In this document: in pieces, positions 10,999 through 50,742 of the stretch
Position numbering within the stretch: the stretch's first letter is position 1
Layout of the letters: the number at the start of each line of letters is the position of its first letter
Assembly: GCA_016182485.1 (NCBI GenBank)
Contig: JACPGH010000005.1
Span: 305 to 64,304 of the forward strand
Reading direction: 5' to 3'
Source: Candidatus Kaiserbacteria bacterium
Lineage (GTDB): Bacteria > Patescibacteriota > Minisyncoccia > Phycocordibacterales > Phycocordibacteraceae
Length of the DNA stretch: 64,000 bases
The notes under the pieces: generated by a model
What the model was told of the DNA's origin: nothing
The model's database searches: none
The model's input: the letters and a program-made list of their open reading frames with translations, nothing else
Made by a program: the position numbers and the translations under genes

Positions 10999-11042
10999 AA
11001 CTCTAGTTACTAGTTGCTAGTTGCTGGAAGCTGGTAAATTCT

Positions 11043-11354
11043 CTAGCTTCTTTTAATAAGGCTTATCTCGGACTCCGCGAGTACGTACATTTCCTCCCCG
11101 TCGATCTTCAAGGGCTCGTCCCACGGTTTTTTGAAAACGATCTCGTCCCCTACCGCGACCTCCATCGCAATACGATCGCCGCTTTCTCCGTGCTTGCCGG
11201 GGCCGACGGCAACTACTGTGCCCGTCATGAGCTTATCCTTTTCGACCGTTTCGGGCAGGATGATGCCGGACGCGAGCTTCTTCTCGCCGGCTTTCGCGTC
11301 GGGCTTCACGAGAACGCGATCGGCTAGCGGCGTAAACGCCAATTTTTTCGCCAT
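11043..11354 (-). CDS. groS: Co-chaperonin GroES
   Basis: MAKKLAFTPLADRVLVKP... Cpn10 signature. Confidence 0.95.
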   Translation of the reverse strand: MAKKLAFTPLADRVLVKPDAKAGEKKLASGIILPETVEKDKLMTGTVVAVGPGKHGESGDRIAMEVAVGDEIVFKKPWDEPLKIDGEEMYVLAESEISLIKRS

Positions 11355-11535
11355 ATCTTTTATCTAAAATTAATAATCATCCGTGTCTGCCGTTTTCCTA
11401 ACTATAAAGAAGTCTTCATCTGCCCGCAACTTGACAGAAAAAATATATGCGACATCATTTATATAGATGTCATTAACGTAAAGAGCTAGTTGTTTGTGGT
11501 AATCTGCATCAAGACTGCTACTGTGGGGAGGCCGC

Positions 11536-11610
11536 ATGTCGGTCATTCTGCTTCCGCTGTTCGCATTTGCCCTCACTCTCTTCTTAATCGGCTGGCTGAT
11601 CGATTCCTGA
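11536..11610 (+). CDS. Small ORF, 24-aa hydrophobic peptide MSVILLPLFAFALTLFLIGWLIDS
   Basis: GGGGAGG Shine-Dalgarno 5 nt upstream of ATG; immediately followed by strong terminator; below ORF-track size cutoff. Confidence 0.4.
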   Translation: MSVILLPLFAFALTLFLIGWLIDS

Positions 11611-11631
11611 CCAGCCGACCACCCGCCGCCC

Positions 11632-11670
11632 GCCGCGGGTCCTCAAGGACCCGCGGCGGCCCTCTTTTTA
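11632..11670 (+). terminator. Rho-independent terminator
   Basis: gccgcgggtcc tcaa ggacccgcggc followed by ggccctcttttta. Confidence 0.6.
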
Positions 11671-11717
11671 TACACACTTGCGCCGCGCCCTTCGCCCGTG
11701 GTACGCTCAAAGCACAG

Positions 11718-11957
11718 ATGGAGGCACTCGTACCGGTATTACCGTACGCGGAAATCATCCTTTCAATCCTCCTCATCGTCGGCATCGTACTGCAGCAGCG
11801 CGGCGCTACTTTGGGCGGAGCATTCGGGGGAGATAATTTCGCGTCCACGTTCTATAAGCGCCGCGGCGCGGAACGGTTCCTATTCAAGGCGACGATCGTT
11901 ATCGCCACCCTTTTGGTGCTTTCGGCGATCTCGAATTTCCTTCTGGCACCCCGTTAG
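11718..11957 (+). CDS. secG: Preprotein translocase subunit SecG
   Basis: Two-TM ~79-aa protein with LLIVGIVLQQRGATLGGAFGG...FLFKATIVIATLLVLSAISNFL matching SecG; upstream part of ORF 11490 is spurious. Confidence 0.7.
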   Translation: MEALVPVLPYAEIILSILLIVGIVLQQRGATLGGAFGGDNFASTFYKRRGAERFLFKATIVIATLLVLSAISNFLLAPR

Positions 11958-12000
11958 AAAACCATTGAGATGCCCGCGCAGACGGAATCTAACTATATGT

Positions 12001-49131: not shown

Positions 49132-49228
49132 CCTAAAATGAATCGCCCCAAGGTTCCTTCCAATTTGTTCCTTAATCATAGCGGTCGTTAGAGTTATGGA
49201 ACAGCTAACCAAAATAGGAAAATAATCA

Positions 49229-49816
49229 CTAGGAAAGACCAAAGTGCTTCCGCAGCATGTCGTCGCGCTCTATTTCTTCAGCAACGATGTACACGATGCT
49301 TTTCCCGAGACGCAGATTCGTTCGCAGAAATACTAGGAGTTCTTCACTGTCGTACGGGTAGACCCATACGCTGTTCTGGATTTTGACGAAACCGTTTCTT
49401 TGGAGAAGCGCTCTGAAGCGGTCTCGCACTTTTCTCCGCCGCTCCCAAATATCAAAAATAATCATGCGCCATTTGCCATCCCATTGCTTTGGATTCGCTC
49501 TCTCGAAGCGCTTATTCTCCTCCTCCATGGAAACCGCTACTCGGACACCTCTGGCAGTAAGCCTCAAGGCCGACCCTTGTTTTGTCCGTACTCGCTCAAG
49601 AAGCCCACGCGCGCGCAGGCGGTTTATTGCCTGGCATATTCGCCGATTCAATCGGGGCTTAGGGCCAATATATTTCTCCACGTATTTGAGCAGCCGTGCG
49701 GCATTCGGCGCCGTTAAGATCAATCCGAGTCCGGCAGTCAGATAAATTGACCCCAGTACCACCGCCTGTATTTTCTCTCGTTTAGCCCTCTGCCGGACTT
49801 TTTCTTCCATGCGCAT
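49229..49816 (-). CDS. PaaX-like wHTH regulator paralog 2 (N-terminal TM anchor)
   Basis: Same architecture as 25814..26392: TM, wHTH, WDGKWRMIIFDIWERRRKVRDRF...GFVKIQNSVWVYPYD. Confidence 0.6.
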   Translation of the reverse strand: MRMEEKVRQRAKREKIQAVVLGSIYLTAGLGLILTAPNAARLLKYVEKYIGPKPRLNRRICQAINRLRARGLLERVRTKQGSALRLTARGVRVAVSMEEENKRFERANPKQWDGKWRMIIFDIWERRRKVRDRFRALLQRNGFVKIQNSVWVYPYDSEELLVFLRTNLRLGKSIVYIVAEEIERDDMLRKHFGLS

Positions 49817-49824
49817 GTTCCTTA

Positions 49825-49845
49825 GTATACACGACCGTTATTGAT
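49825..49845. promoter_or_regulatory. Half-site related to the 38-bp PaaX-like operator, overlapping a TATACT -10 box 7 nt upstream of paralog 2 ATG
   Basis: tatacacgaccgttattgata vs tatacgacgaccgtctattatgtttgata. Confidence 0.35.
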
Positions 49846-49886
49846 ATGGAACACAGCTCGTGGACAGGCGTATTTTGAAGTCAGAA

Positions 49887-50231
49887 TTACCAAGCGAAGT
49901 GCGCGGACGCGATAGACCGCACAATTTTACAGATGAATGCGCCTACGAGGAATCCGGCAGTCATCCATGCGACAATAGCAGCAAAGACGGCGGCCTGCGC
50001 CGGAATGCCAAAATATCCCTCGATTTCCAGAAGAGGATATGTTAAAGGTATCATCACTTTTGCCAAAATACTCATTTCCGGAGCGGCGTCCATAAAAGCG
50101 AAGAAGTTGAGACCGTAGCGGAAATCCGTCGCCCATATCCAGACTAATGTTGCAACTGGGAAAAGCGCCCCAATAAAACCGGAAAAAAGGTACCAGAAGC
50201 GCTTTCGCGTCAACTTTTCAGAATCGCTCAT
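49887..50231 (-). CDS. Hypothetical 3-4 TM membrane protein
   Basis: Hydrophobic; inserted between rpsG and fusA. Confidence 0.5.
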   Translation of the reverse strand: MSDSEKLTRKRFWYLFSGFIGALFPVATLVWIWATDFRYGLNFFAFMDAAPEMSILAKVMIPLTYPLLEIEGYFGIPAQAAVFAAIVAWMTAGFLVGAFICKIVRSIASAHFAW

Positions 50232-50249
50232 TTCTAAACAGTAGCACGG

Positions 50250-50714
50250 CTACCAAGCAAAGTGCGCAAAAGCTTTATTTGCTTCCGCCATTCTGTGCAT
50301 TTCGTCCTTCTTTTTGATCGCCTCCCCTTCGTTCTTTGACGCGAGAAGGATTTCATTCGCGAGCTTCTCGGCCATAGGTTTGCCTTTCTTCGAACGCGCC
50401 GCGCCGATTATCCATCGGAATGCGAGAGCGAGCCTGTGCTGTTGAGGCACTTCGCGGGGCACCTGGTAATTCGCGCCGCCGACGCGCCGCGAGCGGACTT
50501 CCATAAGGGGCGAGACGTTGCGGATAGCGGCCTCGAAAGTTTCCATCGGTTCGGCGCCGTCCTTTTTCAAGATGTCGAACGCACCGTAGACCACGGCCCG
50601 AGCCGTATCTTTCTTACCGTCCCACATAACTGCATTGATGAAGCGGGTCAGGGTTTCGGACCCGTACTTCAAATCAGGACGCCATGTTCTTTTCTTTTTA
50701 AGTGGTCGTCTCAT
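50250..50714 (-). CDS. rpsG: 30S ribosomal protein S7
   Basis: S7 signature. Confidence 0.95.
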   Translation of the reverse strand: MRRPLKKKRTWRPDLKYGSETLTRFINAVMWDGKKDTARAVVYGAFDILKKDGAEPMETFEAAIRNVSPLMEVRSRRVGGANYQVPREVPQQHRLALAFRWIIGAARSKKGKPMAEKLANEILLASKNEGEAIKKKDEMHRMAEANKAFAHFAW

Positions 50715-50742
50715 TGTATTTCTAAAGCCTAGTGCCTAGAGC

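Follow-up and report, generated by a model that had tools for sequence, protein, structure and literature searches.

Heptamer-spaced CTAG arrays at gene junctions of a Kaiserbacteria-like genome, and a related CTA core upstream of start codons in other Paceibacteria

CTAG arrays at the cistron junctions

The stretch of DNA analysed here, which we call the window, is 64,000 nt long (57% GC) and comes from a Kaiserbacteria-like member of the Paceibacteria/Parcubacteria, within the Candidate Phyla Radiation (CPR). Its S3 protein is 100% identical to an NCBI protein of a 'Candidatus Kaiserbacteria bacterium', and at most 88% identical to any other S3 among 5.8 billion proteins. The subject of this report is a set of 11 arrays, each with 2–6 units built around the tetramer CTAG, which lie at or near junctions of the groESL, infC-rpmI-rplT, map-ndk, str, S10 and spc operons. 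The genes at these junctions are all on the minus strand, except for infC-rpmI-rplT, which is on the plus strand. Pfam matches confirm the identities of the junction genes as Cpn10/Cpn60, IF3/L35/L20, M24 peptidase (methionine aminopeptidase)/NDK, L6/L18, S17/L14, L22/S3, L23/L2, EF-Tu/S10 and S12/S7. A sequence-only reading of the window had listed CTAG-rich motifs at such junctions, and all of them are present where it had placed them. Two of its details need correction. The junction it called ndk-map does carry the motif, but on the coding strand map precedes ndk; and the tuf-rpsJ spacer, described as having five copies of ACTAGT, does have five CTAGs, but only three complete ACTAGTs.

Over the window as a whole, CTAG is scarce, with 104 occurrences versus 240 expected from base composition (observed/expected ratio, O/E, of 0.43). 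The deficit lies within the coding sequences (55.8 kb), which are depleted at 50 occurrences versus 206 expected (0.9/kb), while the intergenic regions together with the stop codons (8.2 kb) contain 54 versus 32 expected. The latter density, 6.6/kb, is seven-fold higher than that of the coding sequences. The proposed concentration of CTAG at junctions of highly expressed operons is borne out. Among co-directional junctions, CTAGs spaced by 7 nt are found at 10 of 34 in the translation and chaperone blocks, and at 0 of 21 elsewhere (Fisher p=0.009).

The spacing of the motifs is far from random. There are 18 pairs of CTAGs spaced by exactly 7 nt versus 0.17 expected, and by this measure of distance-7 excess CTAG ranks first of the 256 tetramers. 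Successive CTAGs are 7 nt apart in 18 cases and 8 nt apart in one, and spacings of 4–6 nt and 9–13 nt do not occur. Neither this strict 7-nt period (occasionally 8) nor the plus-strand array at rpmI-rplT had been noted in the sequence-only reading.

On the coding strand, the unit is best described as C-Y-A-G followed by three nearly random nucleotides. In the 50 units, position 3 is invariably A, position 2 has T 43 times and C seven times, and C at position 1 and G at position 4 are found in 46 units each, with no clear preference at positions 5–7; degenerate units read CCAG or TTAG on the sense strand. Neighbouring units differ at 11–14% of core positions and at 60–62% of spacer positions (p=5e-12, a value that holds after dropping one perfect pair per array to offset ascertainment). 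Because the core is conserved while the spacers are near-random, the units are periodic motifs rather than fresh slippage copies of one heptamer. Nine of the 11 arrays stop 2–13 nt upstream of the next ATG, and the array makes up the whole spacer at rplF-rplR, rplW-rplB and tuf-rpsJ. The arrays are listed in Table 1, along with a period-8 array of the same class.

Table 1. Positions and units of the junction arrays in the window (units are written on the sense strand, 5' to 3').
Feature	Position	Strand	Units and context
groES-groEL spacer array	10999..11034	-	CCAGCTT CCAGCAA CTAGCAA CTAGTAA CTAGAGTT, then groEL ATG
rpmI-rplT spacer array	24990..25039	+	CTAGATG CCAGTTTA CTAGCCG CTAGTTAA CCAGAAA CCAGTAT..CCAG; first TAG is the rpmI stop
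map-ndk spacer, two inverted arrays	28756..28816	-	CTAGGCA TTAGGCT CTAGCGA ... CCTAGCG CCTAACG CCTATCT; ndk ATG 12 nt further on
rplF-rplR spacer, array throughout	32952..32984	-	TAA, CTAGGCT TTAGGCG CTAGGCT CTAGCAAAAAAC, ATG
rplX-rplE spacer, same class, other unit	34852..34884	-	(ATATTTAA)x4, period 8, reaches ATG
rpsQ-rplN array	35552..35589	-	(CTAGAGC)x3 CTACTTAT CTACCT, ATG; start of array is the S17 C-terminus and TAG stop
rplV-rpsC array	37231..37257	-	CTAGGCT CTAGGCA CTAGGCT CTAGCT, ATG; encodes the L22 end and TAG stop
rplW-rplB spacer, array throughout	39249..39284	-	TAA, CTAGTCT CCAGTTA CTAGCAC CTAGCCA CTAGTTTT, ATG
CTAG pair plus one more CTAG, 3' of an inserted 428-aa ORF	41667..41696	-	no adjoining start codon
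Three units	43133..43150	-	CTAGGGA CTAGGCG CTAGCAC; 50 nt past the rpsJ stop, directly 5' of a strong terminator-like hairpin
tuf-rpsJ spacer	43612..43657	-	TAG, A CTAGTTAA CTAGTGA CTAGAAA CTAGTTA CTAGCAAA CCAGCCAC, ATG
rpsL-rpsG spacer	50715..50745	-	(A)TAGGCT CTAGGCA CTAGGCT TTAGAAATACA, ATG; first TAG is the rpsL stop

The CTA core in related loci

The same junctions are short in close relatives (1–20 nt), G-poor and without a Shine-Dalgarno (SD) sequence, as in TAAtATG and TAActgtcATG. The rplW-rplB spacer is 36 nt in the window versus a median of ~6 nt in relatives, the rplF-rplR spacer 33 nt versus ~6 nt, and the tuf-rpsJ spacer 46 nt versus 7–26 nt; the O/E of CTAG in relatives lies between 0 and 1.3, with most values at 0.05–0.3. 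Since these short junctions are free of arrays, the arrays in the window are lineage-specific expansions.

More distant Paceibacteria loci have many period-7 arrays, but with other units. In a survey of tandem arrays of at least 2.8 copies over 1.4 Mb of the clade, intergenic arrays are overwhelmingly of period 7 (47, versus 1–7 for each other period), while those in coding regions are mostly of period 6 or 9. In the related loci, 25 of the 43 intergenic arrays of period 7 or 8 are followed on the gene strand by an open reading frame (ORF) starting with ATG, at a median gap of ~4 nt, and only four of the 43 are followed by one on the other strand. In the window, nine of 11 are followed by such an ORF on the gene strand.

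The common element of these arrays emerged from a scan of upstream regions (45 nt each, 2,198 ATG-initiated ORFs) for any trinucleotide with three or more in-register copies. CTA comes out on top at period 7, with 24 regions in 12 lineages (L036, L037, L041, L042, L045, L055, L058, L064, L075, L079, L137 and the window), and does not stand out at a period of 5, 6, 8 or 9. TAG, the complement of CTA, is repeated in this way only in arrays with CTAG units, and so the CTA core is specific to the sense strand. The genes downstream are rpsC, rpsS, rplV, rplB, rpsH, rplP, rplO, rplD, rplW, rplC, rplX, rplN, rpsJ, groEL and ndk. CTA is preceded by A or C, and the base after it, which in the window is G in 14 of 16 cases, is free in the other lineages (A 18, C 19, G 16, T 10). 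The last CTA starts at -8 relative to the ATG in 10 of the 24 regions and at -7 to -9 in 14, which leaves ~5 nt before the start codon. One member of the set, L137 (a CPR-like metagenome contig of 35% GC), has CTAG/CTAA arrays upstream of rpsS, rplV and rpsC, and its L22 stop codon lies inside an array.

The most regular examples are found upstream of rpsC in L041, L055 and L058, each of which has five CTAs, at -8, -15, -22, -29 and -36. In pairwise comparisons of the three, all 15 of the 15 CTA positions are identical, versus only 5–7 of the 21 other spacer positions, and the synonymous-type sites of the adjacent rpsC genes are only ~40–44% identical. This pattern bears the mark of constraint acting on the triplet and on its phase. 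How the arrays are laid out, which strand they are specific to, how far they are conserved and in which lineages they occur are matters of direct observation.

The window contains several other repeats and insertions. AT-rich arrays of period 8 run up to an ATG at 61760–61835 ((AAACATTT)x9.5, 5' of a 23S-rRNA-IVP-like ORF) and, in degenerate form, at 62098–62125 (5' of a DUF2164 ORF); the TTTAAA/TTAA cores of the period-8 arrays place TAA on both strands. Upstream of tuf (44869–44950), inverted heptamer arrays, (AATTTTN)4 ... (AAATTGN)4, are able to pair, and a promoter-like match overlaps them. The same family of units, in the same arrangement, is found in the distant relative L045 (5593–5687 and 7433–7464), upstream of an rplP-like gene and of another gene. 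The rplV-rpsC array, (CTAGGCT)n at 37233–37257, and the rpsQ-rplN array, (AGCCTAG)n at 35563–35589, are reverse complements of each other over 24 of 25 nt; as the two arrays are separated by 1.6 kb and presumably share one mRNA, they could pair at long range or undergo inversion. Outside the junctions discussed here, a 23/47-nt tandem repeat (ATGGTGAGCRWAGTCGAAC.., four copies, 5682–5777) forms the spacer between the minus-strand ORFs 5003–5683 and 5779–7038, and fusA and rpsG have a small PaaX_M/Cas2-like ORF (49229–49528) between them, in whose vicinity no CRISPR array was noticed.

The S10 operon is broken by non-ribosomal ORFs of 96 aa (38047–38337), 112 aa (41245–41583) and 428 aa (41743–43029), and contains strong terminator-like hairpins at 37926–37955, 41215–41239 and ~43090–43125; it is probably split into several transcription units. 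The 428-aa ORF, between rpsJ and rplC, is an insertion with no Pfam match. It is flanked by a direct repeat of ~35 nt (GAAGATGATYTAAA..CTAGGNACTAGG, at 43133–43170 and 41667–41705), which may be an insertion footprint or a recombination site.

A proposed role in translation initiation, and rival explanations

Because of their position, their sense-strand orientation, their phase with respect to the ATG, the conservation of their core, the SD-poor background and their placement in highly expressed operons, we suggest that the arrays belong to the translation initiation region. The reading we favour, to which we give roughly even credence, is that they are an SD-independent cis element of this region, read as single-stranded RNA with a 7-nt periodicity. 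The series of two to six C-Y-A-G units, each with three variable nucleotides, would have expanded in this one Kaiserbacteria lineage, inside formerly tight junctions. It would represent a local form, its fourth base having become fixed as G, of a strand-specific (M-CUA-N3)n element. This element, carried by about a dozen Paceibacteria lineages, fills the intercistronic spacer and keeps a set phase to the start codon; its last CUA is typically at -8, ~5 nt before the AUG. We infer that the arrays may act in the RNA and promote initiation: they would work on the mRNA of highly expressed SD-less genes, within the translation initiation region, as a multivalent platform for loading or re-initiation whose period is 7 nt. 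The reader would most plausibly be a single-stranded RNA-binding module that takes one heptamer each, of the OB-fold S1 or cold-shock-domain (CSD) type, and less likely a segment of the 16S rRNA. A binding site, one of the functions proposed in the sequence-only reading, is compatible with the 4-nt core being conserved, with the randomness of the 3-nt spacers and with the constant phase relative to the ATG.

A more sweeping form of this idea can be put forward only tentatively. Here, (M-CUA-N3)n would be a clade-wide Paceibacteria code for ribosome recruitment or re-initiation that replaces the SD sequence, and its 7-nt period would be read by a dedicated RNA-binding factor or a ribosomal component; the lineage of the window would have evolved a CUAG version and spread it to at least 11 junctions in the operons that it expresses most highly.

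The background for both forms is that SD sequences are uncommon in these genomes. By a 4-of-AGGAGGT rule, SD sites precede seven of 75 genes in the window and one of nine genes that follow an array, this one being rplT, whose array is the only one with an SD-like sequence (AAGGAGG) between it and the ATG. The frequency over the clade's loci is ~8%. SD sites are rare everywhere (~8–9%), and no anticorrelation with arrays was seen. The arrays themselves were rejected as SD sequences, as they contain no GGAG, GAGG or AGGA and offer no match to the canonical CCUCC anti-SD.

A number of observations weigh against a role in initiation. CTAG arrays are lacking in the close relatives of the window, namely L001–L014 (74–82% S3 identity) and the Logan contig L081 (88%), and since the same genes are array-free in the closest relatives, the arrays are dispensable. 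The sister lineages L035, L049, L052 and L053 are array-free as well. In the window, the arrays lengthen junctions that looked tightly coupled. Two arrays, at 41667 and 43133, are in 3' regions, 75–100 nt from any start codon. In the other lineages, the clustering of mismatches in three contiguous columns is not significant by a column-clustering permutation (P=0.18). As for the reader, no CSD, S1, HutP or TRAP protein was found among the ~50 window proteins scanned, and the 202 sequences examined for a 16S 3' end include no rRNA gene. A role as unstructured leaders was considered and rejected, given that the initiation regions with arrays have a mean minimum-free-energy z-score of ~-0.7 and that two of them are strongly structured.

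The rival that we take most seriously, while judging it unlikely, is that the arrays are neutral or selfish simple-sequence repeats (SSRs). Heptamers would expand by slippage and persist harmlessly, with all-frame stops blocking read-through fusions, and their cores would be homogenised by ectopic template switching. Heptanucleotides are reported to be the most abundant class of long SSRs in most prokaryote genomes, possibly through polymerase slippage (Mrazek et al. 2007, as cited in PMC4679880), and the dominance of period 7 among intergenic arrays of the clade fits this explanation. So does the sporadic occurrence of arrays among relatives, including their absence from, and hence dispensability in, the closest ones. 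CTAG heptamers are also widespread: CTAG(N3)x4 is found in more than 120 unrelated metagenome contigs of 34–71% GC, a heterogeneous collection of mostly pure microsatellites or telomere-like repeats, plus a separate soil family, which overall have no preference for start codons (24% versus 18% at random positions). This lack of a link to starts indicates that CTAG heptamers are not special per se, and that what is special is the phased arrays of Paceibacteria, in which only the core is kept. Slippage does not account for these. It would leave divergence spread evenly over the unit, but a 4-nt core is conserved beside near-random spacers; the same sense-strand CTA core is found in 12 lineages; the -8 phase to the ATG is fixed; all 15 CTA positions are kept in three species with nearly saturated synonymous sites; and the arrays are confined to translation-related operons.

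A separate family of (CTAGCTN)n arrays was seen in the contigs L099, L108, L124, L149, L156, L169, L177 and L185 (GC ~58–62%), often paired with an inverted (NAGCTAG)n array 50–170 nt away. These arrays are located 7–15 nt upstream of ORFs with housekeeping-like N-termini (rpsI, nusA, atpC, pheT, dnaJ and ychF), and their CTAGGAG units include an SD-like AGGAG.

It had also been proposed that the arrays place TAG in all three frames and serve as translational stop insulators, selected to terminate ribosomes of any frame before the next cistron. The first part is literally true, as three or more CTAGs at period 7 yield TAG in all three frames of both strands, simply because the period is not divisible by 3. 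The array TAG is in fact the stop codon of rplV, rpsQ, rpsL and rpmI (the first TAG in frame), and genes ending in TAG are frequent in these operons (14 of 41). The tails of two proteins are likewise encoded by arrays, ..ELGSRH* in L22 (37240–37260) and ..SLEPRA* in S17 (35569–35590), and as both proteins end differently in relatives, the arrays have rewritten protein ends. The evidence does not support stops as the selected feature, however. Among 29 arrays of period 7 or 8 that lie upstream of starts and lack CTAG, 13 close all sense frames, versus 16 expected from shuffled units, and units without a sense-strand stop are common (TCTACTC, CTACGAA, CTATTGC). The conserved core is CTA, not TAG; within the window, CCAG, which destroys the stop, is tolerated seven times, while the A at core position 3 never varies; and relatives do without arrays altogether. 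The absence of stop enrichment in the non-CTAG arrays makes the all-frame TAG look like a by-product of the geometry. From these sequence comparisons, all-frame stops are probably not what is selected, and we regard the insulator explanation as improbable. The stops more plausibly explain how arrays can adjoin or extend into gene 3' ends harmlessly and supply stop codons there; harmlessness by way of stops has been argued for TAACTGA repeats, too (PMC4679880).

We see an equally poor case for RNA processing or stability, in which the arrays would be endoribonuclease sites or protective hairpins that divide the polycistronic mRNA. Two junctions do fold well beyond expectation from dinucleotide shuffles: the inverted arrays of map-ndk pair into a hairpin of -35 kcal/mol (z -4.4), and the tuf-rpsJ array forms an 11-bp hairpin of -18.6 kcal/mol (z -3.7), because its ACTAGT units are palindromic. 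Inverted array pairs also recur upstream of an adk-like ORF in L037 (17001–17085), L042 (11649–11713), L045 (13037–13120) and L062 (8317–8343), and a gene for a beta-CASP/RMMBL RNase (26458–27849) adjoins ndk on its 3' side. Most arrays, though, are about as structured as their shuffles (z -0.9 to +1.1) and the arrays share no common fold. An Rfam search of the whole window at gathering thresholds returned one tRNA and nothing else, and the ATG phase and CTA core have no obvious tie to known RNase specificities.

The adk-type arrays, (AAGTATC)n...(TTGATAC)n and variants, are predicted to form a long hairpin whose 3' arm ends 1–4 nt before the ATG. This hairpin may enforce translational coupling.

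Sites at the DNA level (TrpR-like CTAG repressor operators, methylation or restriction targets, or recombination hot spots) have very little to recommend them: CTAG is a palindrome, ACTAGTTAACTAGT in the tuf-rpsJ spacer matches the E. coli trp operator core, and an array-bearing repeat flanks the inserted 428-aa ORF, but the class shows strand specificity (a sense-strand CTA; CCAG seven times, CTGG never), its period is 7 rather than 8 or 10.5 (a TrpR-type operator would have CTAGs 8 bp apart in a promoter, and this spacing occurs once versus 18 times for 7), the arrays are intra-operon and start-phased rather than at promoters, and the ~50 window proteins scanned include nothing TrpR-like. 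No sigma-70-like promoter match falls on these arrays, and so a promoter explanation was rejected as well.

Comparison with known systems and wider meaning

The closest parallel is the TAACTGA heptamer, which forms direct repeats in Beggiatoaceae from marine settings and in certain cyanobacteria and Bacteroidetes (MacGregor 2015, PMC4679880). These repeats have 2–6 copies, mostly a few nucleotides upstream of start codons, where they overlap and replace the SD sequence; they are also found at internal junctions of ribosomal protein operons and are absent from close relatives (PMC4679880). The candidate readers discussed for them are S1, cold-shock-domain proteins and CsrA (PMC4679880), and B. 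subtilis CspB is cited there as binding heptamer repeats with one protein per heptamer. The window arrays are alike in being intergenic 7-nt direct repeats of 2–6 copies, located in place of the SD sequence a few nucleotides before the start, at ribosomal protein junctions and sporadically among relatives, with stops in every forward frame and with function unproven. They differ in the unit, which is CYAG+N3 in the window or CUA+N4 in relatives (no TAACTGA arrays were seen here), and in the phylum, as the Paceibacteria belong to the CPR, unlike the TAACTGA hosts. Furthermore, only a 3–4-nt core is kept and the other bases can vary, in contrast to TAACTGA repeats, whose description is that of a single copied heptamer, and the Paceibacteria arrays are phased to the ATG and conserved across species despite diverged spacers.

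Simple-sequence repeats with heptamer units include the cyanobacterial STRR heptamers. Long SSRs and STRR repeats share with the present arrays the dominance of period 7 among non-coding tandem repeats and the lineage-specific units. Those repeats are treated as slippage products, made of whole, identical units with no fixed relation to start codons, in contrast to the random spacers, shared core and fixed phase seen here.

In their layout, the arrays also resemble the sites of the ring-shaped regulators HutP, which are UAG-N4 x3, and TRAP, which are (G/U)AG-N2-3 x9–11. All have a trinucleotide core, a fixed short spacing and free spacers, and are read as single-stranded RNA (predicted here). 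The HutP spacing, with period 7, is that of the CTAG arrays, and the UAG-N4 pattern is present in every one of them, but the triplet conserved in relatives is CUA, not UAG. The arrays depart from TRAP sites, which have 9–11 triplets 2–3 nt apart, in having a period of 7 (occasionally 8) and no more than six units. Moreover, HutP and TRAP sites are located in leaders and serve attenuation or anti-termination of single operons, whereas the present sites are at start codons and number in the dozens. With SD sequences, standby sites and A/U-rich S1 enhancers, the arrays have in common that the last unit occupies the SD position, ~5 nt before the AUG, and that the genes are highly expressed. They differ in lacking canonical anti-SD pairing and in having 3–6 repeats of strict period, and in this genome they are not especially A/U-rich or unstructured.

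What is new here is the clade-wide CUA core, its fixed phase to the start codon and the constraint on it across species; heptamer repeats that replace SD sequences were already known, although unexplained. A search of the literature library available found no paper on heptamer arrays or SD usage in CPR/Patescibacteria. If the arrays do act in initiation, they would supply a testable rule for how start codons are chosen in bacteria that barely use SD pairing, the uncultivated CPR among them: a CUA every 7 nt, with 5 nt between the last CUA and the AUG, kept while the intervening bases drift. The heptamer repeats of Beggiatoaceae and cyanobacteria would then gain a link to a functional class. 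A caution for annotation is that the C-termini of ribosomal proteins such as L22 and S17 can be rewritten by arrays, and the same rule, if it is true, would improve the calling of start codons in CPR genomes.

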